A stretch of 64,000 nucleotides of DNA from an uncultured Candidatus Poseidoniales archaeon (GCA_905182125.1 CAJJAV010000008.1:3974-67973), one strand, 5' to 3'. Positions 2,883 to 36,666 are shown, numbered from the stretch's first letter. The notes: a model not told the origin generated them from the letters alone. Numbers and translations: made by a program.

Positions 2883-3434
2883 ATGTACAAAATTGTATCA
2901 AGGGAAGACACGATCCGCATTCCTGCCGAATACATGCGCAAAGGCGCATCGCTGAATGATCACATCGATCGACTTTCAATGACCGCATTTGAAGGTCGCT
3001 TCGATGAACAAAACCGCTTCATCCTCCTAACCACCAACCACGAACCACTCGGCCGAGGTCGAATCATTCACGGCGACGGTGCCATTTACCAACGTGTTCG
3101 CTTCGATGCCGTGCTCTTTTGCATGGAAGATTACGAAGTGGTCGAAGGCGCTGTTTCCGAAGTCAACGAATTCGGTGCTTTCGTCCGAATTGGTCCTATG
3201 GAAGCTCTCCTTCACAAGTCTCAGATCATGGAAGACCACGTTGATGCCAACGTCGGCATGGGATGGATCGAAGGCCGTCAAAGCGGTCGTCGCATCGGTG
3301 TTGGGAACTCAGTTCGTGCTCGAATTGTTTCACTTTCCCCTGACACATCGGATCCTCGCCGCTCCAAGATTGGATTGACCAGCAAGCAACCGGGTCTCGG
3401 ATGCCACACCTGGCTCGATGAAGACAATGAATGA
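2883..3434 (+). CDS. rpoE: DNA-directed RNA polymerase subunit E' (Rpo7), S1 domain
   Basis: Seen: GAGGTGA lies 7 nt before the ATG at 2883 (the track ORF begins at a TTG at 2859). The S1-fold segment is VVEGAVSEVNEFGAFVRIGPMEALLHKSQI. Known: it heads the conserved archaeal rpoE'-spt4-S24e-S27ae operon. Confidence 0.9.
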   Translation: MYKIVSREDTIRIPAEYMRKGASLNDHIDRLSMTAFEGRFDEQNRFILLTTNHEPLGRGRIIHGDGAIYQRVRFDAVLFCMEDYEVVEGAVSEVNEFGAFVRIGPMEALLHKSQIMEDHVDANVGMGWIEGRQSGRRIGVGNSVRARIVSLSPDTSDPRRSKIGLTSKQPGLGCHTWLDEDNE

Positions 3435-15480: not shown

Positions 15481-15556
15481 GGACGGCGTAAGAGGTCAAC
15501 ATATGAGTTCTTTCGCCCGTTCTGACTGCGAATGGCTTGAGAAGCAATCAGTGAGC

Positions 15557-15562
15557 ATTAAA
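15557..15562 (+). promoter_or_regulatory. TATA-like ATTAAA upstream of tRNA-Ser
   Basis: Seen: 28-33 nt upstream of the tRNA 5' end at 15590. The assignment is inference. Confidence 0.3.
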
Positions 15563-15589
15563 CGCAGAAGCCGAGTCGCCGGGTTACAA

Positions 15590-15675
15590 GCCGAGATCGC
15601 ATAGCCTGGTATTGCGCGCGACTGGAAATCGTGTTTCCTTTGGATTCGGGAGTTCAAATCTCTCTCTCGGCGCCA
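15590..15675 (+). tRNA. tRNA-Ser (anticodon GGA), long variable arm, CCA encoded
   Basis: Seen, folded by hand: acceptor GCCGAGA/TCTCGGC, anticodon stem CGCGA/TCGTG with loop CTGGAAA, variable arm TCC-TTT-GGA, T arm GGGAG-TTCAAAT-CTCTC, discriminator G, then CCA. Confidence 0.9.
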
Positions 15676-15771
15676 CTTCTTACTTTCCTTCACGTTGCAT
15701 GTGCTGTACTTCATCCCCTTCACGGGTTCCTTCGGGCAACATGTGAGCAAGCATAACGTTGGGATCTTTAC

Positions 15772-15846
15772 TGGAGCCACCGGCGAGAATTGAACTCGCG
15801 ACCTCCTCATTACCAATGAGGTGCTATACCGCTAAGCCACGGTGGC
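15772..15846 (-). tRNA. tRNA-Thr (anticodon GGU), CCA encoded
   Basis: Seen, reverse complement folded by hand: acceptor GCCACCG/CGGTGGC, anticodon stem CCTCA/TGAGG with loop TTGGTAA, T arm GCGAG-TTCAATT-CTCGC, discriminator T, then CCA; 75 nt. Confidence 0.9.
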
Positions 15847-15872
15847 AGTAATGCTGGCGACTTACCGGACCA

Positions 15873-15878
15873 ATATAA
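15873..15878 (-). promoter_or_regulatory. TATA-like TTATAT upstream of tRNA-Thr
   Basis: Seen: 27-32 nt upstream of the tRNA 5' end at 15846. The assignment is inference. Confidence 0.35.
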
Positions 15879-15991
15879 CCGCTTCGCGTCTGAATGAAGG
15901 TATGGAAATGATACAGGTCTGCTATGTGATGGCCTCAAAGCCTATAAGGTGATTTTTAGAAATATTCTTTTGGAGAAGGCAACTTCTCTGG

Positions 15992-16189
15992 ATGGGATGG
16001 AATATGCAGCGAGAGCTTGAAACAAAAACGGAGATGCGTCAACGAATGCGCGATCTCCAGAGCCAGGTAGATGAATTGAAAGACCTCGTGAACACGTTAC
16101 TCAGTGTCATATGTGAGGAACCGGATGGTGTGCACAGTGGAGCAGCACCGACCATTCCTGGTCAACCAGCAAATAACTACTGTATGTGA
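15992..16189 (+). CDS. Small coiled-coil protein (65 aa), hypothetical
   Basis: Seen: an A/T-rich TTTTTAGAAATATT box lies 26-39 nt upstream and GGAGAAGG lies 12 nt upstream. There is a heptad-like ELETKTEMRQRMRDLQSQVDELKDLVNTLL, and the stop is 2 nt from the rtcB stop. No homology recognised. Confidence 0.35.
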   Translation: MGWNMQRELETKTEMRQRMRDLQSQVDELKDLVNTLLSVICEEPDGVHSGAAPTIPGQPANNYCM

Positions 16190-16191
16190 CG

Positions 16192-17667
16192 TCATCCTTT
16201 GATGACTGCCAGTGGACTCAATCGAGCAACTGGCCTTGCAAGGTCCGCAGCATGTGTTAGTGCAATGACCTCATCGACGTCTTTGTAGGCATCAGGCGCT
16301 TCTTCAGCCAGTACATTTGGTGTCGATGCGTGGATCCGTATGCCCTTTGCTTCCAACGTTCTCTTCAACTCTTTCCCATCAATTGTGTTCTTGGCTTTGG
16401 TGCGTGAAAGTGCACGCCCTGCACCATGACATGATGATCCAAAGGCGCGGTTCATTCCCTTCTTTGGGCCCGACATCAGCCAAGATCCTGTGCCCATATC
16501 CCCGGGTACAAGGACCGGTTGTCCACTTTTATCATAGACGGAGTTTACATCGCTGTGATCGCCTCCGAAGGCTCGCGTAGCACCCTTTCTATGAACGCAG
16601 CACGTGCAGTCTTTTCCATCGATGGTGTGCTTCTCGACCTTGGCAATGTTGTGTGCCACATCGTACAAAACCCGTGCTTCTCCATCGGTGCCTAATTCTA
16701 ATCGTAGCACTTCTCGAAGACGATGAGCGAGGGCACTTCTGTTGGCAAAGGCAAAGTTTGCTGCAGCGTTCATTGCGTCAAAGTAAGATTGCCCCTCCTT
16801 GCTGTGGAAGGGGGCTGATGCCAATTGACGATCTGCCAAACTGTAGCCCCATTCCTCATCGACCCATTGATTGCCTTGGGCTTTGTAACGGCCTTCCAGT
16901 GCTCTGACGTGATCGCTGCATACTTGATGGCCGAGTCCACGAGAACCAGAATGAATCATCGCAACCAGTTGACCTTCATACAATCCCCATGCTTCCGCTG
17001 TTTCTGCATCGACTGTTTTGCCGACCGTTTGAAGTTCGAGAAAATGGTTGCCGCTACCGAGGGTGCCAAGAGCACGGAGGCCCCGTTCCCTTGCACGGGT
17101 CGAAATGGCTGCTTCTTCGGTGACCAAACGACCGCTTGATTCTATGTTTTGAATGTCTTCATGGAAACCAAATCCGAGGTCCGCCGCCGCATGAGCGCCA
17201 CCTTGAATCAATTCATCGAGTTGGCGAGCGTCAATGTCAAGCCCGCCCTTTCCAGATGCACCAGCAGGAATTCGACCAGCAAGCCGACCCGCTAATTTTT
17301 TGAGATTCGGGATGTCTGATTCAGTGGCATCTAGAGCCAACATTCGAACGCCGCAGTTGATGTCAAAGCCAACGCCACCCGGTGAGATGGCTCCACCGAG
17401 TTCACCTGCTTCTGTATCGGTCGCAATCACGCCTCCAATTGGGAGGCCGTAACCGTAATGCCAATCAGCCATCGCCCAAGCTTCGCCGACGATTCCTGGC
17501 AGTGAGGCTGCGTTGACCAGCTGCTCTGGTCCACGATCATCGCCATGTTTTCTCAGATGGTCTGCATCGGTGACGAGGCGTGCATCGACCTTCATTTGTC
17601 CATGTGCCTTGATTCGCATTGTCCCATCACCCTCATCCACGAGGTGGGTGCGCCAATCTTCGCCCAT
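16192..17667 (-). CDS. rtcB: RNA-splicing ligase RtcB
   Basis: Seen: GSGNHFLE, HSGSRGLGHQ, PGDMGTGS, SCHGAGR and the C-terminal AVIKG. Confidence 0.95.
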   Translation of the reverse strand: MGEDWRTHLVDEGDGTMRIKAHGQMKVDARLVTDADHLRKHGDDRGPEQLVNAASLPGIVGEAWAMADWHYGYGLPIGGVIATDTEAGELGGAISPGGVGFDINCGVRMLALDATESDIPNLKKLAGRLAGRIPAGASGKGGLDIDARQLDELIQGGAHAAADLGFGFHEDIQNIESSGRLVTEEAAISTRARERGLRALGTLGSGNHFLELQTVGKTVDAETAEAWGLYEGQLVAMIHSGSRGLGHQVCSDHVRALEGRYKAQGNQWVDEEWGYSLADRQLASAPFHSKEGQSYFDAMNAAANFAFANRSALAHRLREVLRLELGTDGEARVLYDVAHNIAKVEKHTIDGKDCTCCVHRKGATRAFGGDHSDVNSVYDKSGQPVLVPGDMGTGSWLMSGPKKGMNRAFGSSCHGAGRALSRTKAKNTIDGKELKRTLEAKGIRIHASTPNVLAEEAPDAYKDVDEVIALTHAADLARPVARLSPLAVIKG

Positions 17668-26986: not shown

Positions 26987-26997
26987 TTCACTTTCAC
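26987..26997 (+). promoter_or_regulatory. TTCACTTTCAC motif (tandem TTCAC half-sites) upstream of the small-ORF/PolB operon
   Basis: Seen: it starts 1 nt after the serA stop and ends 55 nt before the ATG at 27053. An identical 11-mer recurs at 32785..32795 on the minus strand. A regulatory role is inference. Confidence 0.4.
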
Positions 26998-27052
26998 TTG
27001 AACCTGCTCGGGTCTCACGAACGATGGTCAATGGTGGCGGTGATTCCCACCC

Positions 27053-27340
27053 ATGGGACGAACGGTACCAACTTGGCGGACACGAATCGAAAACGAACTT
27101 CATTCGCTGGAGATGTTCCGTCGTGCACTTCCTTCGACTGAGAAGCCGTTGTTCGATGCGCTTCTTACGGGGGTTCGAAACCGGCGAACCGCCGGTGGCA
27201 TGTTGCCCTCACATGATGTTTGGAAACCTATGCTGCTTTCCATGTTGATCGAGATGATGGTTCAGAATGCCAAACTCGAACGACGCTTGGACGTTCTTGA
27301 AACGGCCGAGGTGATGGGCGATGAGCCGGCCCATTCTTGA
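27053..27340 (+). CDS. Small hypothetical protein (95 aa) translationally coupled to PolB
   Basis: Seen: GGTGA lies 9 nt upstream of the ATG, and the 3' end overlaps the PolB ATG by 20 nt. It looks helical (ENELHSLEMFRRALPSTEKPLFDALL...). No family recognised. Confidence 0.5.
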   Translation: MGRTVPTWRTRIENELHSLEMFRRALPSTEKPLFDALLTGVRNRRTAGGMLPSHDVWKPMLLSMLIEMMVQNAKLERRLDVLETAEVMGDEPAHS

Positions 27341-29744
27341 TGTTCAAAGCGCCGCCAACGGGACTTCAATGGATGTATGGCTGCTCGATGGTGAGCGTGG
27401 GGCAGTCAAGGTCAATGTCCCCTGGTGCCCTTCAATTCACGTCCATGCAACCCGGCACCGACTGAAGCACCTGTGGGCTTGGTTGGAACAACCTGAGATT
27501 CGTGACCGATTTGGCGTTGGCATGATGCGAACGCACCGTTCTCGACTTTCATTCGATGCTTCGGAAGTGGATGATGTGCTCGAAATCGATGTCCACAACA
27601 GTTGGAACATGAGGAAACTAGCAGCCCACATTGAAACCCGGGGTCAGTACCGTCACCACACCCTCTATTCGGTCGACGCTCACCTAGCGCAGCGTTTTCT
27701 GGTTGAGTATGGCATAGCACCATTCCAACGGGTGGAGTGGGACGGGGCCACATTCCAAGCCTTGCAACGCTCTTGGCACCTGCCAGAACTCAGCGTTGTT
27801 CACATGAGCGTCACCTACCGTACCACCAACGGGTTTCACACAGAAGAGGCTGAAATTGATGCCATCGAATTCCGAGCCTGTTCAGCAGATGGCCGATGCG
27901 ACCTTGATGCGCCGCCCATGCGTTCGCTGCTTCGGGCGAATCATCGCGATTCAGGGATGTTCTTGGGGCATCTTGAAGCGGTCATGAGCGAGTTCAATCC
28001 TGATGTGCTGTTGACGCACGGTGGCGATGGGCTCCATTTCCCTGCATTGATGAGGCTGGCAAAGCAAGCAGGTGTGACCTTGTCGCTCAGCCGTGATGAC
28101 CGTCCACTGGCGGCTCGTACCTCTGCTCGAACTGTTCACTCATACGGCCAAACCCTGCATAAAGACGGGTATATCCCACTGTATGGGCGCCTGCACATCG
28201 ATCAAAACAGCAGCTTCATCGTTCGTGAGGGTGGCTTACTCGGTCTGTTTGAACTGGCACAGCATTCCCAACAATCCCCGCAAGACATCTCCCGACTTTC
28301 GCCTGGGTCCGTGATCAGTGCGATTCAAATGCGTACGGCAATGGAGGATGGGGTGCTTGTGCCATGGAAGAAAAACCGTCCAGAGGATACCAAAACTGCT
28401 TGGGCGTTGCTTCATGCCGACCGGGGTGGTTTGTACCTTGACAGCAAACCCGGCGTGTATGGTCACGTGGTTGAACTTGACTTTGCGAGCCTCTTTCCAA
28501 GCATCATTGCCACTCGTAACATCTCCACTGAGACCCTTAACTGCCCGTGTTGCCAAGCTAAAGAATCGCCTGATGCAAGTCACTTTGTTCCCCTTCACCC
28601 CGCTGATGCGGAACGGGCCTTTACCGAGCGACACACAAAACGTCACTTCGGTGCAGGGCTGTTTCCAATCGCTTCTCCAAACGCTCTTCCCGTTCCCGGA
28701 CTTGCCTCACACACATGTGGGCAAATTCACGGCTTCCTCGGACGCATTGTAGCGCCCTTGATTGAGCGAAGGCGCCAGTTGAAGCTTCAAATCCTCACCA
28801 AAGGCGACCGTTTTGATCAACAGCAAAATGCTCTCAAATGGTTGCTCGTAACCTGCTTTGGATACACAGGATACAAGAATGCTCGATTTGGACGGATTGA
28901 AGCCCACGAAGCGATTTGCGCTTGGGCGCGTGATATTCTTCTCGAGACCATTGCGATGGCGGAAGAAGACGGTTGGGAAGTGCTGCATGCCATCGTGGAT
29001 TGTGTTTGGATTCAGGACCGGCGTCAGCGAACTGCAGAACAACGCCGCATCGATGCTCATGCCTTCGCTCAACGGGTCACAGAACGTGTGGGAATCCCTC
29101 TTGAATTCGAAGACATGTACCGTTTCATCGGTTTTGTCCCGAGCCGTGTTCACGGAGCTGGTTCCCTGACGAAGTATTGGGCGTTTGGAGAACATGGGTT
29201 GAAAGTTCGAGGGATTGAACAACGGCAACACTCGACCTGTGTCTGGGTTGCCAACATGCAACAAAGGGCGCTCCAAATGCTCGTTGAACATTCCAACGAC
29301 ATCGATGGTGTTCCTGGTCTGACGGCTCAAAAAGCAGTCGTTTCGCTGTTGCAGCAACAGATTCAGCGCCTCGAGCGGAATGAAGTTGGGTTGGACGAAC
29401 TTGTTGTGGCACGCCGAGTGACTCGGGATTTGGATGACTTTCATGTGGCGACCCTCACCCATGCAGCGTTGCTTCGTGGTCGCCTTCACGGTGTGACCAT
29501 TCCCCCAGGGGGTAAAGTGCGCTTTGCAGTTGTTGCTTCGACTGGGATGGTGCAACATGAACGGGTGATTTTACTCGAAGAGTTGGATCATGATCAACAC
29601 CTGTCGAAACGTCCCGATGTGGATCATTACAGAGCGTTGGCCATCCGTGCCATTTGGGCCATTGTGGCACCTTTTGGATGGGATGAAGAGGAAGTGTGTG
29701 TCGGTCAGCGTCGATCATCGTTGGATGCTTACATGGAGCAGTGA
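27321..29744 (+). CDS. polB: Family-B DNA polymerase with degenerate 3'-5' exonuclease motifs (PolB2-like)
   Basis: Seen: pol motif A ELDFASLFPSII, motif B KWLLVTCFGYTGY, and motif C reading VLHAIVDCV where canonical PolB has VLYxDTDG/S (second Asp kept). ExoI is LSVVHMSV instead of FDIE, and ExoII is THGGDGLHFPAL instead of YNGDxFDxPYL. Alignment to Pfu-type PolB was done by eye from memory. Confidence 0.9.
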   Translation: MSRPILDVQSAANGTSMDVWLLDGERGAVKVNVPWCPSIHVHATRHRLKHLWAWLEQPEIRDRFGVGMMRTHRSRLSFDASEVDDVLEIDVHNSWNMRKLAAHIETRGQYRHHTLYSVDAHLAQRFLVEYGIAPFQRVEWDGATFQALQRSWHLPELSVVHMSVTYRTTNGFHTEEAEIDAIEFRACSADGRCDLDAPPMRSLLRANHRDSGMFLGHLEAVMSEFNPDVLLTHGGDGLHFPALMRLAKQAGVTLSLSRDDRPLAARTSARTVHSYGQTLHKDGYIPLYGRLHIDQNSSFIVREGGLLGLFELAQHSQQSPQDISRLSPGSVISAIQMRTAMEDGVLVPWKKNRPEDTKTAWALLHADRGGLYLDSKPGVYGHVVELDFASLFPSIIATRNISTETLNCPCCQAKESPDASHFVPLHPADAERAFTERHTKRHFGAGLFPIASPNALPVPGLASHTCGQIHGFLGRIVAPLIERRRQLKLQILTKGDRFDQQQNALKWLLVTCFGYTGYKNARFGRIEAHEAICAWARDILLETIAMAEEDGWEVLHAIVDCVWIQDRRQRTAEQRRIDAHAFAQRVTERVGIPLEFEDMYRFIGFVPSRVHGAGSLTKYWAFGEHGLKVRGIEQRQHSTCVWVANMQQRALQMLVEHSNDIDGVPGLTAQKAVVSLLQQQIQRLERNEVGLDELVVARRVTRDLDDFHVATLTHAALLRGRLHGVTIPPGGKVRFAVVASTGMVQHERVILLEELDHDQHLSKRPDVDHYRALAIRAIWAIVAPFGWDEEEVCVGQRRSSLDAYMEQ

Positions 29745-29826
29745 TGGAAGCATATCCAAGCACTCGTGCCCATACAGACTCGCAAAAAGAAGCATCATTG
29801 TATGTTTTTTGTATCGAAACCCCACT

Positions 29827-30837
29827 TCAGAGTTCACTCGATTCTGGATTGGTTTCAGTTCTGAAGTATCGGTAGAAGAAGTACAATGATGCCCCCGTCA
29901 ATATGTGCCACACAGCATGGTATTGGAACAGTGAATCAGGGTTACAGGCTGCCTCACCGCTGCGACCATAGCGCCATACGATGTTGCCCACAATGTAGCA
30001 GCCGAATCCAATCCACAAATCCGGTTGAGCTTTGCGAAGGAGGGTCTGTCCCGGGTTGAAGTGGAGCGCTAATGCGATGCCGATGAACATCAAACAGAGG
30101 AGGATGATTTGCATGGTTGGGGCGCCAACAGAAAGTGTGATGCATGCCACAAGTGGGACTCCAATCATCCAAGGCCATTGATTCCCAGTGAGGTTTTTTG
30201 CCTCCTGTATCAGCCATACTCCGATGTACAAGGACCACAAATAATCTCGTGTGATGCTGGAGAGTTTGAGGTTCCGTGATCCTGAAAAGTTCTCAATGAG
30301 GGTGACGTTATTGTTGGCAGCAAAGGTGTCCAATAGGGCAGTCAATACGAACACGCAGAAAAACACAGTTAGAAAAAATCGGTCACTCCAGCGGTATTGG
30401 CGGCTGAGGTTGTAATAAACGGGAAAGGAGATGAAAAACAACATGCCGGTCCAATCCATACTGGTGCCCCAGTTGGTGTTCGTACCATGCATGGCAAAAC
30501 TACCGACTCCAATGTAGATGGAACCGGTTGCGAAAAGAATCGGGTACACGCTCCGTTCAAGCATTGGATTTCTTGACTTCTCCCTGGTTGTAGGCAGGTT
30601 CCACAAAACAACGAGCCCCACGAACACATAGGTCAAGTTGGACAACGTGTTCATCGGTTCCTTGATCAGTCCATCGGAGATTCCTTCGCAGAAATTGGTG
30701 GCAGATTCAATAGGCTCAACAGCCCATGTTGATGCACCAAGGATCGCGTACATTGTAGCAAGAAGGACCAATATTCCGATGGAAACAACAAACTCCCGCT
30801 TTTGTTCGAACAGCGTCGAAAACGATTGTTTGGTCAT
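29827..30837 (-). CDS. Alkaline ceramidase-family (PF05875-like) 7-TM membrane hydrolase
   Basis: Seen: NFCEGISDGLIKEPMNTLSNLTYV (compare ACER WCEeNY..iaEfwNTvSNl), FAMHGT...MDWTGM, and the C-terminal QYHAVWHILTGASLYFFY. The ATG at 30837 is preferred. Confidence 0.7.
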   Translation of the reverse strand: MTKQSFSTLFEQKREFVVSIGILVLLATMYAILGASTWAVEPIESATNFCEGISDGLIKEPMNTLSNLTYVFVGLVVLWNLPTTREKSRNPMLERSVYPILFATGSIYIGVGSFAMHGTNTNWGTSMDWTGMLFFISFPVYYNLSRQYRWSDRFFLTVFFCVFVLTALLDTFAANNNVTLIENFSGSRNLKLSSITRDYLWSLYIGVWLIQEAKNLTGNQWPWMIGVPLVACITLSVGAPTMQIILLCLMFIGIALALHFNPGQTLLRKAQPDLWIGFGCYIVGNIVWRYGRSGEAACNPDSLFQYHAVWHILTGASLYFFYRYFRTETNPESSEL

Positions 30838-31022
30838 GGGTCGGCGACATCGCTGTAGTATTTCGTTCTGAGTGTTGAACAGCAGCATTGTCCCAGCAGG
30901 CAGATGTCATCGAGCCACATCGACGTGGCTCGGTTGCTAACCTGATACACTTTTCAGCTTCTATTCATACTCAACGCATATCAGTGAAGTGCTTTACGCT
31001 CAGGTCGGGTGACTCTTTGGGA

Positions 31023-31772
31023 GTGAAGAAATATGGGGACCGTGAGGTCATTGATTTGTCCGAATGGGGCCGGCCAATCGCTCGTGTGATGGCCAACTTC
31101 CTCAAGGAGAAACCAATTTCTGTGATGCAGGTCACCAACATCCACTTTGTTCTCTCGCTCTATTGTGCTTGGCTGATCTATGAAGGGAGCACAATTCTTG
31201 CTTGCTCGTTGCTCATTGTGAAGGGTGTGATTGACGCAGTTGATGGCGAATTGGCCCGCATGCGTGAACGTCCATCGCACGTTGGACGGTACTGGGACAC
31301 CGTGGCTGACACCCTCGGCTTGGTTGCTGTAATGTGGGCATTCGCTACCCTGTTGAACTGGGAGGTTGCTTTCACCGGTGCCATGATTTTGGCGACCTTA
31401 TTCCAGTATTCATTGTTCAATCACTATTCAATTTTGATGCGTGCCCTCGGTTCCGGGGACGACACCAGTCGAATTGATGAGCGCGTCCGCCCGGTTGCTC
31501 ACCCTTGGGAGAAGCAGAGCAATGTCAACTTCTTGCATTTCATCTACTTGTGCTTTTTCAGTTGGCAAGACCGAATCATCTCCGCATTAACTGGCAAAGG
31601 CTCAGAAAAACTCGTGTTCGAATTGACCGTTTCTTCTTCGCTCGGATACGGTGCACAATCGATCGTCATCTTTTTGCTGGCATTGACACAGAACCTCGAT
31701 TACTTGCCTCACTTGGTCTTAGGTGTCAATGGTTCTTTGATGGCCTTGGTCATCCTTCGCAGTCGAATCTAG
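31023..31772 (+). CDS. CDP-alcohol phosphatidyltransferase family protein
   Basis: Seen: signature DAVDGELARMRERPSHVGRYWDTVAD (D-x2-DG-x2-AR...G-x3-D-x3-D) and multiple TM helices. The start is uncertain (GTG 31023 is my choice; the track has TTG 30888). Confidence 0.8.
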   Translation: MKKYGDREVIDLSEWGRPIARVMANFLKEKPISVMQVTNIHFVLSLYCAWLIYEGSTILACSLLIVKGVIDAVDGELARMRERPSHVGRYWDTVADTLGLVAVMWAFATLLNWEVAFTGAMILATLFQYSLFNHYSILMRALGSGDDTSRIDERVRPVAHPWEKQSNVNFLHFIYLCFFSWQDRIISALTGKGSEKLVFELTVSSSLGYGAQSIVIFLLALTQNLDYLPHLVLGVNGSLMALVILRSRI

Positions 31773-31837
31773 AGCAAGCATCGACCTGATTGTCTTTGGC
31801 TTGAACCGAAGGCTAGCGTGTTTTCTTTCGATAAGGA

Positions 31838-32017
31838 ATGGAAACCGTGACTCCAAGGCGGTGCCATGAACCTACCAAAGACCTCTCAATAGGCGGAAAT
31901 GAGTGGTCTTGTTACCATTCTTGCTGCCGTACAGTCTTGGTTTCAAATTCAAGAATGACAAGGGATCCGCCAAAGTACTGCAGCTCTCACGTTAACAGAA
32001 CTGTTTCACTGCCTTGA
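31838..32017 (+). CDS. Possible 59-aa Cys/His-rich small protein (below the track threshold)
   Basis: Seen: my own translation is METVTPRRCHEPTKDLSIGGNEWSCYHSCCRTVLVSNSRMTRDPPKYCSSHVNRTVSLP. It fills most of an otherwise anomalous 250-nt convergent spacer and ends 5 nt from the neighbouring stop. RBS spacing is poor and I recognise no homology. Confidence 0.3.
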   Translation: METVTPRRCHEPTKDLSIGGNEWSCYHSCCRTVLVSNSRMTRDPPKYCSSHVNRTVSLP

Positions 32018-32022
32018 TTTCA

Positions 32023-32733
32023 TCAATGCAAACCGGCATCTGTCAACTGATCGAACACACGGAAGAGGCTCTTTGCGACCCTTGGTTCCGGCCACATACC
32101 TGAAGTCCCGCTTGGTTGGTGAATCAACCATCTGGGAGAGCGGTCTGTTTTCGCACTTCTTTGTTCGGTGAGGTGTTGGGATGAACGCCGTTCAATCATC
32201 GCCAGCAAATGTTGATGCCGCTTGGATACCGGTTCGGTAGCAGTAATGACAATGACTGCCGTGTTGCTTTTTTCAGCCAAGTCTTGGAGTTGAATGCTGA
32301 TGCTACGCATAAGACTCCGGGCCTCATGATCCCCCACTTGCGTGTCCAAATGCATGGCAATCGGTCCATCGATCACTACCAATGGGGATCGAGTGATCGA
32401 AACTTCCCTTGGCAGACGTTCAACTAAAGTGGCCAGTTGATGAACGGTAAAACCACGCCCGATGAACAAACGATGGAGATGATCACGTGCTGAAGGCTCA
32501 TGACTTGGAAAGCATTTCAAAATCCGGCTTGGGTCAATGCGTGATGCACCATCGACCCAGTGGACACTTTCACCTCGCATCAAAGCGGCTACGGTCCAAG
32601 CCTCAGCGTACTTCCTCATGCTCTGTCCTGCACGGCCATGGCCGTGCAACTGGTAGATTCCCCCCCGCATTGGTGCGATTGTTGTGAGGTCCAATGCTGC
32701 ATCGCTTCGTTGAATGGGGAAGTTAACGGTCAT
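32023..32733 (-). CDS. RadB/RecA-fold paralog with a degenerate Walker A (predicted ATPase-dead)
   Basis: Seen: MRGGIYQLHGHGRAGQS sits at the P-loop position (GxxGxGK[ST] with Lys replaced by Gln). Also present are ESVHWVDG, the Rad51/RadB-like LHRLFIGRGFTVHQLATLVERL, Walker B PLVVIDG, and NTAVIVIT. The family call is by eye. Confidence 0.7.
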   Translation of the reverse strand: MTVNFPIQRSDAALDLTTIAPMRGGIYQLHGHGRAGQSMRKYAEAWTVAALMRGESVHWVDGASRIDPSRILKCFPSHEPSARDHLHRLFIGRGFTVHQLATLVERLPREVSITRSPLVVIDGPIAMHLDTQVGDHEARSLMRSISIQLQDLAEKSNTAVIVITATEPVSKRHQHLLAMIERRSSQHLTEQRSAKTDRSPRWLIHQPSGTSGMWPEPRVAKSLFRVFDQLTDAGLH

Positions 32734-32771
32734 ACCTCGGAAGGTTTGGAACCCGGTCCTCTTTCCTTCGG

Positions 32772-32795
32772 TTCACCCCCTCGGGTGAAAGTGAA
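32772..32795 (-). promoter_or_regulatory. Operator-like cluster: inverted repeat TTCACCC-N4-GGGTGAA overlapping GTGAAAGTGAA (= TTCACTTTCAC on the minus strand)
   Basis: Seen: it sits in the 120-nt divergent intergenic region, with the 11-mer 51 nt from the RadB-like ATG and 58 nt from the dinB ATG. The function is inference. Confidence 0.4.
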
Positions 32796-32853
32796 TGTCA
32801 TCAGGCCAAAAGATGTCATCAACTTGAAACACCGTGGCCACTCGAACAGGGTC

Positions 32854-33987
32854 ATGAAGGAGGAGAATGCAGGGACCTCTTCCTCAAACGAACGCATTCT
32901 TGTCCATTGTGATTTGGATGCGTTTTTTGCTTCGGTGGAAATCCTTCACCGAAGTTTAGACCCAGAACGTCCATTGATCATTGGATCAGACCCCAAAAGT
33001 GGTCGCGGGCGTGGCATCGTTTCCACATGCAACTACGCAGCCAGAGCGTTTGGTATTCGCTCCGCCATGCCGATTGGCGAAGCGTGGCGACGTTGCCCAG
33101 GTGCTCCGTTTGGCACAGGGCACTACATTCATGGTACGCGAGGTTTGTACAATCGAGCCTCAAGAAAGGTGATGGCGATGTTACGACCTCCGGCAGAACA
33201 TTTTGAACAAGCGGGCATCGATGAGGCCTATCTTGACATTACGAATGAAGTCGAAGGTGATTGGGATCGAGCTTACGCCCTCTGCCGTGATTTGCAAAAA
33301 TCGATTGAAGCGCACTTGGGTCTCACCGCTTCGTTCGGTATTGCACCGACACGAATCTTGGCAAAAATGTCAAGTGAAATCAACAAACCAAACGGGATTT
33401 TTAGGATGCTGCCAGACGAAACTCACGAATTCTTTGTCGAACGCTCGTTGCGTGAAGTCCCCGGTATTGGACCGAAAAGGGCCACACAATTGGCCGAGTG
33501 GGGTTTCAACACCGTCGATGAAGCATATGAATTGGGTGAATTGGCGTTGGGACGCATCGCAGGTGAACGGTTTGCGACCTGGCTTGTACAGGTCGTCGAC
33601 GGTGATACCAGCAGTGAAGTGAGCCCTCTTCGCAGTCGCAAATCGATTGGTAAGGAGAACACATTTTCTAGCGATGAACATGACAATGAACGCGTGTTGG
33701 AGCGCCTCAAAACACTTGTCGAGACGGTGATGGCCAAGGCCAAGGGGATCGGCGTGGCAGGTCGCTTGTGCGAGGTTAAGGTACGGTACACTGGGTTTGA
33801 AACTCATACCCATGGGCGTTCAATTCCTGTGGCCATGGATGATGTCGATGTCTTCACGCGCCTTGCGGTACGTTTGTTTGCTCTGAATGTCGATCATCAA
33901 CGACCAATCCGTTTGATTGGTTTTCGACTTGGTCAACTCGACATGCCACCAACTCGGCAAGCCAAGTTAGCACTCGAAGAGGAATAA
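32854..33987 (+). CDS. dinB: Y-family DNA polymerase IV (DinB/Dbh/Dpo4)
   Basis: Seen: HCDLDAFFASVE, GIVSTCNYAARAFGIRSAMP, GIDEAYLDIT, SFGIAPTRILAKMSSEINKPNG, VPGIGPKRATQL. The ATG at 32854 is preferred; the track ORF extends to 32560 and would overlap the divergent gene. Confidence 0.9.
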   Translation: MKEENAGTSSSNERILVHCDLDAFFASVEILHRSLDPERPLIIGSDPKSGRGRGIVSTCNYAARAFGIRSAMPIGEAWRRCPGAPFGTGHYIHGTRGLYNRASRKVMAMLRPPAEHFEQAGIDEAYLDITNEVEGDWDRAYALCRDLQKSIEAHLGLTASFGIAPTRILAKMSSEINKPNGIFRMLPDETHEFFVERSLREVPGIGPKRATQLAEWGFNTVDEAYELGELALGRIAGERFATWLVQVVDGDTSSEVSPLRSRKSIGKENTFSSDEHDNERVLERLKTLVETVMAKAKGIGVAGRLCEVKVRYTGFETHTHGRSIPVAMDDVDVFTRLAVRLFALNVDHQRPIRLIGFRLGQLDMPPTRQAKLALEEE

Positions 33988-36480: not shown

Positions 36481-36666
36481 GTGCCTCACCTGGCCCCTCA
36501 CGCATCAATGGTGCGGGTCCATTTGACGCTGACAGGGTTCACCTTTCAAACCAACGGCTTGGACTCGAAGCCTCAACCCAGTCCTAACAGATTTGAAACA
36601 TATCATGCAAACCGTAGGTAGGGCTTTCAAGGGGTTCGACATCCAGAGAATCGAAGGGGGGTTCAC

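Follow-up and report, generated by a model that had tools for sequence, protein, structure and literature searches.

A conserved tandem hexamer element at both promoters of a split PolB2 mutasome module in marine group II archaea, probably a damage-responsive regulatory site

A promoter circuit that responds to DNA damage has been shown by experiment only in the Sulfolobales, and its occurrence in other archaea is an open question (PMC6061795, PMC12890983). In Sulfolobus acidocaldarius the ultraviolet-response element is the hexamer A(N)TTTC, present as ACTTTC at upsE and upsA; it lies at -44 to -39, just 5' of a weak B recognition element (BRE), and induction depends on it (PMC5817253). In Sulfolobus islandicus, Orc1-2 gives a footprint on the element, for which the consensus AATAGTTTCRGWDTACTCWS has been derived, and is needed for induction; dpo2 (PolB2) is the sole induced polymerase (PMC6061795). 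All three genes of the module that encodes PolB2 are damage-induced in the Sulfolobales in an Orc1-2-dependent manner (PMC6061795, PMC5817253). Here we describe an element with the same core hexamer at both promoters of this module in a 64,000-nucleotide stretch of DNA (the window; GCA_905182125.1 CAJJAV010000008.1:3974-67973) from an uncultured Candidatus Poseidoniales archaeon, a member of the Poseidoniaceae (marine group II, MGII). This cis-element is conserved, is specific to the two promoters, holds a constant position and orientation at them, and recurs in a second archaeal class.

The module corresponds to the PolB2 'mutasome', a predicted complex of three proteins encoded by neighbouring genes (Makarova et al. 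2014, PMC4104785; Timinskas et al. 2025, PMC11791011), for which no cis-element is described in the latter paper. The 95-amino acid open reading frame (ORF) at 27053-27340(+), which overlaps the start of the polymerase gene, is identified by its sequence as PPB2 (partner of PolB2, arCOG07300): it has 39% identity (E 7e-11) and a common N-terminus, MGRTxPT[WF]R, with the PPB2 of a Halobaculum operon, and its orthologues belong to PF26485/DUF8156. The polymerase (27321-29744(+), 807 amino acids) matches DNA_pol_B alone in Pfam, with no exonuclease-domain match, and the NCBIfam PRK05761 type B models at about 1e-113. When it is aligned to KOD polymerase, motif C changes from YSDTDG to HAIVDC, such that the first Asp of DxD is gone, and the Exo II Asp is replaced by His; such loss of the DxD motif and degeneration of the exonuclease fit the PolB2 signature of Timinskas et al. 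2025 (PMC11791011). The third gene, RadB-like at first sight (32023-32733(-), 236 amino acids, convergent with PolB2), gives weak Rad51, RadB and RadA matches only, has a Walker A motif GHGRAGQS in which Lys has become Gln, and is 27% identical (E 2e-10) to the first gene of the Halobaculum operon, which encodes iRadA, the inactive RadA paralogue. The missing DxD Asp, the dead Walker A motif of iRadA and the conserved N-terminal arm of PPB2 are all features of the published mutasome. The initial annotation, made from the window alone, had spoken of three specialised replication/repair genes as if independent; PPB2, PolB2 and iRadA are instead predicted to be subunits of one complex (PMC11791011), and it is these three that the two motif-bearing units encode.

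Published accounts of the mutasome stress a same-strand operon, whereas all Poseidoniales loci are arranged as PPB2 -> PolB2 -> <- iRadA, with iRadA on the opposite strand and convergent from its own promoter. The usual single operon of three genes was thus not found in the Poseidoniales, and two promoters are therefore needed. PolB2 and iRadA directly adjoin in all the other Poseidoniales loci; in the window and in L001 (loci are given L numbers), its 96% relative, two unrelated genes (29827-31772), a ceramidase-like gene and a CDP-alcohol phosphatidyltransferase gene, lie between them. Different Poseidoniaceae have or lack the entire module at the place between dinB and a 2-hydroxyacid dehydrogenase gene (the window versus L159-L162), and other Poseidoniales clades carry it at other genomic places.

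In the window the element takes the form of the 11-mer TTCACTTTCAC, which occurs exactly at two sites only. Copy 1 (26987-26997(+), with the ACTTTC core at 26990-26995) starts where the stop codon of the preceding 2-hydroxyacid dehydrogenase gene ends, at a distance of 55 nucleotides from the PPB2 ATG (27053). Copy 2 (32785-32795(-), with ACTTTC at 32787-32792(-)) faces iRadA, 51 nucleotides from its ATG (32733, minus strand), and lies 58 nucleotides from the dinB ATG (32854) within a divergent intergenic region of 120 nucleotides. The core is non-palindromic and faces the downstream gene at both copies, at -63 to -58 relative to the ATG of PPB2 and -48 to -43 relative to that of iRadA. There are two candidate placements of the core promoter. 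An exact scan and the gene starts agree with the copies, orientation and three distances reported in the initial annotation, and a scan with one mismatch returns just the two coding matches that it had listed (3329-3339 and 16404-16414). Its argument that such a match is unlikely by chance holds for this one pre-chosen pair of spacers, for which about 0.004 matches are expected, and fails across the window: the 27 intergenic regions (3.2 kb) share 4 exact 11-mers against 1.8 expected, and at least one exact 11-mer is common to some intergenic pair in 75% of shuffles. Hence the window by itself gives no significance to the 11-mer pair, which is supplied by conservation in relatives. The looser pattern T[TC]CAC.T[TC]CAC also matches the two sites only, and none of the other 25 intergenic regions contains it. 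An explanation of the motif regions by tRNA or Rfam families was checked and excluded.

Using the polymerase as the query, with one genome per species, 22 loci were retrieved, all from Poseidoniales, with identities from 96% down to 42%; the homologue searches with PolB2 and DinB gave Poseidoniales only among the matches listed. The core TCACTTTCA stands at the same place in all 20 of the 20 genome-scan loci that cover the PPB2 promoter, down to the lowest PolB2 identity of 42%, and is kept upstream of PPB2 also where the preceding gene differs. In the 14 PPB2 promoters of MGIIa, TCACTTTCACTTG forms 13 consecutive invariant columns, the longest invariant block of a spacer with 24 invariant columns among 66, and a run of this length is reached in none of 20,000 column shuffles (P<5e-5). 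Further clades, reached through PolB2 homologues, have two to four tandem hexamers in looser versions at the PPB2 promoter: TTTCAC ATTCAT TTTTAC TTTCAC in L155, ATCAC TTTCAC ATTTAC in L157 and GCAC TTTCAC TTTCAA in L163. A description of the motif as two TTCAC half-sites is consequently correct in part; the invariant portion is TCACTTT(C)(A), and other clades have two to four tandem TTYCAN hexamers.

At the second promoter, TTCACTTT is invariant in the 10 iRadA-dinB intergenic regions of MGIIa. The iRadA promoter of L155 again has tandem hexamers, TTTCACTTTCAC, and looser TTCA-repeat versions are seen in L154, L157/L022 and L163. The proposal that a single cis-element is common to the small-ORF/PolB operon and the RadB-like gene is thereby upheld, as footprinting of the orthologous intergenic regions finds the motif kept at both loci while the flanks diverge. 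Nor does the motif recur at unrelated genes in the DNA sampled: the 435 kb of the window and loci hold 39 occurrences of TCACTTTCA against 3.3 expected, and all those checked outside the two promoters lie in coding sequence, with no noncoding match elsewhere among them.

The second class in which the element is found is the Halobacteria. A tblastn search against plasmids located PolB2 on 109 haloarchaeal plasmids, of which 18 loci were read; most have iRadA-PPB2-PolB2 on one strand, and 3 of the 18 have unannotated upstream genes or a seemingly disrupted operon. The MGII-type word precedes the operon in 5 of these 18 loci, approximately 21 nucleotides 5' of a TATA-like box. The plasmids of Halobaculum roseum and H. 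magnesiiphilum carry the exact 11-mer within GTTCACTTTCACTTCCAC, the 9-mer CACTTTCAC is present in Halorubrum PV6 (GTCACTTCCACTTTCAC) and H. litoreum (GCCACTTTCAC), and H. rubrum has a remnant, TACTTTCAC. By chance, T[TC]CAC[TC]T[TC]CAC is expected approximately 0.5 times in 144 kb on both strands, and far fewer times in the promoters alone. A promoter blastn search against plasmids matched Halobaculum only.

Most other haloarchaeal loci have a second version, consisting of tandem ATCGGAA, CCCGGAA or (A)NTTTCGGAA repeats about 10 nucleotides 5' of the TATA box. In the 5 loci with an adjacent Cdc6/Cdc18 gene and a readable promoter (L143, L144, L153, L166 and L168), the cdc6 and operon promoters share the same repeat variant, be it ATCGGAA, CCCGGAA or ANTTTCGGAA: Halosegnis has CCCGGAA at both promoters, Haloprofundus and Haladaptatus have ATCGGAA at both, and the cdc6 promoter of Natrononativus has CACTTTCGGAAGTTTCGGAAACG. 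Loci with the CACTTTCAC version are without an adjacent cdc6, and those with the TTTCGGAA version have one; the Cdc6-linked promoters contain ANTTTCGG repeats. Such matching of repeats within a locus is what an autoregulated local regulator would produce, and suggests that the adjacent Cdc6 paralogue regulates both itself and the operon. No description of this matching between cdc6 and the PolB2 operon was found in the literature searched.

The Poseidoniales element has the same core hexamer as the damage-response element of the Sulfolobales, in the ACTTTC version of upsE and upsA (Le et al. 2017, PMC5817253; Sun et al. 2018, PMC6061795), and is likewise non-palindromic, fixed in orientation and located tens of nucleotides before the ATG, apparently just upstream of the core promoter. 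The targets are orthologous, being the dpo2/PolB2 operon with PPB2 and the RadA paralogue that is damage-induced in the Sulfolobales. The MGIIb form, ACTTTCAGG, fits the extended Sulfolobus consensus AGTTTCRG, as does the haloarchaeal ANTTTCGG. Unlike the Sulfolobus element, that described here has additional conserved flanks (TCACTTTCAC), and its lineage is Thermoplasmatota rather than Crenarchaeota. A candidate regulator has been reported for this lineage, since Raymann et al. 2014 assigned an MGII gene to the Orc1-2 cluster, where it branches basally to the Crenarchaeota (PMC3914693), and archaeal PolB2 neighbourhoods are enriched for orc1/cdc6 (PMC11791011). The initial annotation had offered the ANTTTC likeness only as a pointer. 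Because the target genes are orthologous to the Orc1-2-dependent dpo2 module, the core is shared in its upsE/upsA form (PMC5817253, PMC6061795) and a candidate regulator is reported, the resemblance now appears stronger than that; it nevertheless remains an analogy.

Two other described systems invite comparison. The bacterial SOS box, bound by LexA at the genes for Pol II, Pol IV and Pol V, follows the same logic of one short operator at the promoters of translesion polymerases. SOS boxes are palindromes to which a LexA dimer binds as a repressor; the site here, by contrast, is a direct repeat, and dinB apparently lies outside the regulon. The Pfam scan of window ORFs gave no LexA-like protein. 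The reverse complement of the motif, GTGAAAGTGAA, presumably resembles the GTGGAAA-type core of the origin recognition boxes (ORBs and mini-ORBs) bound by Orc1/Cdc6, and the haloarchaeal versions of the motif include TTCCAC, which is GTGGAA on the opposite strand. Unlike clusters of ORBs, the copies described here are single, stand at promoters, and have no dyad, AT-rich unwinding region or adjacent orc gene. The window shows no sign of a replication origin at them: there are two isolated copies at gene starts, no AT-rich stretch, and no orc gene among the ORFs scanned. The cumulative GC skew of the window reaches its maximum near 46-48 kb and then falls.

The element is very probably a genuine shared regulatory site, and the explanation that best fits the comparisons is an upstream site which likely co-regulates the split mutasome and is probably damage-responsive. 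It consists of tandem TTYCAC hexamers with an ACTTTC core, apparently just 5' of the core promoters of the convergent PPB2-PolB2 and iRadA units, and the same site at each outer promoter would keep the three subunits co-expressed despite the position of iRadA on the opposite strand. A factor would bind the tandem hexamers head to tail, its binding being coupled to DNA damage, and once bound would help TBP/TFB to load onto an otherwise weak core promoter, as in the Sulfolobales. It is from this analogy that we infer that damage induces the units, that the factor activates and does not repress them, and which regulator is involved. Damage responsiveness, considered separately, seems reasonably likely. 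The best candidate for the factor is an Orc1-2-type paralogue of Orc1/Cdc6, an assignment which is a strong possibility falling slightly short of probable.

Several observations weigh against this interpretation. The Sulfolobus element is a single hexamer, whereas here two to four are arranged in tandem with a period of 6 nucleotides. ANTTTC has a low information content, with 149 matches in the window, and it is chiefly the orthologous target genes that support the resemblance to Sulfolobus. The distance from the motif to the downstream blocks differs by approximately 6-7 nucleotides between the PPB2 and iRadA promoters, the iRadA copies of L157/L022 and L163 are degenerate, and in L015-L019, the most distant clade, in which iRadA follows a ParB-like gene, the motif is absent from the iRadA promoter. 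No Orc1/Cdc6 or obvious transcription factor was found in a Pfam scan of about 36 window ORFs, which covered approximately 1-17.7 and 22-53.4 kb of the 64 kb, nor was an Orc1/Cdc6 found in the Poseidoniales PolB2 loci using Pfam on the neighbours of the distant loci and a P-loop regular expression over all loci. As to the size of the regulon, the approximately 0.5 Mb of Poseidoniales DNA scanned is mostly orthologous.

Among the rival explanations, a chance match or a generic promoter word of the genome might be read from the window itself, given the shared 11-mers of the shuffles and the lack of enrichment of one-mismatch matches across the window (4 versus 2 expected). It is effectively excluded by the comparative data, as the element persists at the orthologous promoters of both units throughout the order, with diverging flanks, is missing from the window's remaining intergenic regions, and recurs at the same gene module in Halobacteria. 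That PolB2 might be part of a mobile cassette, with the copies as its terminal inverted repeats or its sites of recombination, is suggested by their inverted arrangement at the two outer ends of the module, by the presence or absence of the module between the same flanking genes and its location elsewhere in other clades, and by the frequent carriage of haloarchaeal PolB2 modules on plasmids. Convergent genes with the same promoter motif, however, give this inverted geometry automatically, and the unidirectional haloarchaeal operons have the motif at their 5' end only. Furthermore, Pfam detects no transposase or integrase in 24-36 kb, no target duplication is seen in filled versus empty junctions, read without a dedicated alignment, and the motif is at a fixed distance to start codons and promoter-like blocks. 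A mobile cassette is accordingly regarded as highly improbable. A more serious rival is a real site read by some other factor, whether a LexA-like repressor with its operator over the BRE and TATA box, an alternative TFB recognising a BRE, or a winged helix-turn-helix, Lrp- or TrmB-type regulator. The motif of MGIIa stands in the position of a BRE, immediately beside a TTGAA-type box; there is no orc gene nearby in the Poseidoniales loci scanned; and haloarchaeal loci of the CACTTTCAC type, unlike those of the TTTCGGAA type, are not adjacent to cdc6. To our knowledge, a repeat period of 6 nucleotides is also unusual among Orc1 sites. Against this, the haloarchaeal motif lies about 21 nucleotides 5' of the TATA box and not at the BRE, weak-looking core promoters (CCGAG in place of TTGAA at iRadA) fit activation better than repression, and the ACTTTC core is common to the Orc1-2-bound sites of Sulfolobus (PMC6061795) and the Cdc6-linked haloarchaeal repeats. 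On this balance a different factor seems unlikely, without being negligible.

The remaining rival is that put forward in the initial annotation, in which all three specialised genes, including dinB, form one regulon through a bidirectional copy 2. The dinB gene (32854-33987(+)) encodes a Y-family DNA polymerase IV (Pfam IMS and IMS_C; NCBIfam Pol IV), and copy 2 lies in the divergent region upstream of it, at a distance of 58 nucleotides and in a layout kept in MGIIa. The motif faces away from dinB, however, which has a promoter block of its own, (G)TCATCAACTTGAAACACCGTGG at 32816-32839(+), with TTGAA approximately 30 nucleotides before the ATG and lying outside the shared element. This TCATCAACTTGAAACACCGTGG block is near-invariant in MGIIa and unique in the window, and in the alignment of MGIIa dinB upstream regions it is the longest invariant run, while the spacer between block and motif varies in length and sequence. 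In the Poseidoniaceae contigs L159-L162, with dinB 69-76% identical, the dehydrogenase gene is followed directly by dinB with no PolB2 module; these relatives keep the block as CAAGTTCAAACACC, the counterpart of the window's CAACTTGAAACACC with TTSAA about 30 nucleotides before the start, and neither TCACTTT nor TTCA-N2-TTCA was found in their dinB upstream regions. DNA damage does not induce the Y-family polymerase of Sulfolobus (PMC6061795). The sequence comparison thus assigns the motif to the module and not to dinB, which is a neighbour that adjoins the motif because the module lies between it and the dehydrogenase gene. Nothing supports an effect on dinB of a factor bound at copy 2, and its membership of the regulon, against which the module-less relatives speak, is improbable. 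The dinB block reads CAAGTTCAA(A/G)CACC both with and without the module (L161:4950-4975; L163:4960-4985), and its conservation goes far beyond what a plain TATA box would require.

If co-regulation of the split mutasome is accepted as the preferred reading, the element is likely a tandem form, new in kind, of the promoter element through which archaea respond to damage, attached to the PolB2 mutasome of MGII and of some Halobacteria by analogy with the Sulfolobales. It would give two more lineages a short DNA target that can be mutated and that belongs to the same translesion polymerase complex, and the shared site would account for co-expression of a three-subunit complex after its operon was split. 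The broader proposal, that an ACTTTC-core damage element read by the Orc1/Cdc6 family is ancient, spans several archaeal phyla and has the PolB2 mutasome as its conserved target, draws on the Sulfolobales (by experiment), the Halobacteria (two versions, one co-evolving with an adjacent Cdc6) and the Poseidoniales; it is more tentative and, at present, somewhat doubtful. Were it true, the most abundant archaea of the sunlit ocean would run an inducible, SOS-like mutagenesis programme. The element is open to testing in the culturable Halobaculum and Halorubrum, and through ocean metatranscriptomes for MGII, which is uncultured and strongly exposed to ultraviolet light.

Both promoters have the same order of blocks, namely the motif, an invariant GGGT, and an A/G-rich block about 30 nucleotides before the ATG. 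At the PPB2 promoter, TTGAA (26998-27002(+)), a candidate TATA-like box, abuts copy 1 and is followed by the invariant GGGT (27010-27013(+)) and a conserved A.G.TGGT (27021-27028(+)) about 30 nucleotides before the ATG; GAAA-type blocks stand at an equivalent distance in other clades. The corresponding iRadA blocks at 32761-32778(-) comprise the invariant GGGT (32775-32778), 3' of copy 2, and AA..AA.G (32761-32768). TTGAA and TTCAA, 24 of each, were counted in 55 upstream regions against approximately 5 expected (about 4-5-fold), a tentative enrichment as these regions are partly orthologous. They occur 20-60 nucleotides before start codons, often then followed by GGGG(T), and gene upstream regions of the window and of L004, L007 and L011 have almost no TTTAA or TTTAT. 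These words may represent the TATA-like box of this lineage; the k-mer enrichment is dominated by words containing stop codons, and the TTSAA idea draws on the 55-region count only. The motif is followed by TTGAA at the PPB2 promoter and by CCGAG at the iRadA promoter of the window, which hints at weak core promoters. Alternatively, the core promoter may be located at the A/G-rich block about 30 nucleotides before the ATG, a placement supported by its agreement with the motif-to-TATA distance of about 21-23 nucleotides in MGIIb and haloarchaea; the A.G.TGGT block could then be a BRE/TATA-like element, or otherwise a start-site region.

Around copy 2, in the window and L001, the second TTCAC forms an arm of a perfect 7-bp inverted repeat, TTCACCC-N4-GGGTGAA (32772-32789), which yields a third, inverted GTGAA/TTCAC unit and of which other relatives retain only weak traces. 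A second exact 11-mer, TGAACCGAAGG / CCTTCGGTTCA, is found both in the iRadA core-promoter block (32766-32776) and in the spacer 3' of iRadA (31800-31810), where it comes after a TTGAA and before a 59-amino acid ORF (31838-32017) with an AAGGA ribosome-binding-like site. Elsewhere in the window, TTTTCATTTTCAT at 1907-1925 is a tandem TTCA repeat with the same period of 6 nucleotides. It lies in a 206-nucleotide spacer that precedes small ORFs without annotation (2092-2776), and may represent a weaker third site. A candidate third motif site in L005, L009 and L011 was rejected, as it lies inside a conserved coding region. A scan of viral contigs for TTCACTTTCAC-N(5-13)-GGGT apparently gave scattered viral contigs among the matches listed; no use was made of this result, and loci L023-L141 were set aside as uninformative. 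On the Halorussus vallis plasmid, where the PolB2 operon has a TCTGGAA-type repeat, GTTTCCACTTTCAC (L151:5990-6015(-)) is found about 2 kb from that operon, in the spacer 5' of a hypothetical gene, after which comes a gene with a TIR domain.

Two further features of the window's intergenic regions were recorded. The overlapping 11-mers TCCCATCCAGA and CATCCAGAGAA occur in three unrelated intergenic regions (1886-2091, 15817-16191 and 36502-36666), and are combined as TCCCATCCAGAGAA in that at 15817-16191. Close to this last region are tRNA-Ser(GGA) at 15590-15675(+) and tRNA-Thr(GGT) at 15772-15846(-), and the mechanically called ORF that overlaps them (15496-15816(-)) is probably spurious.

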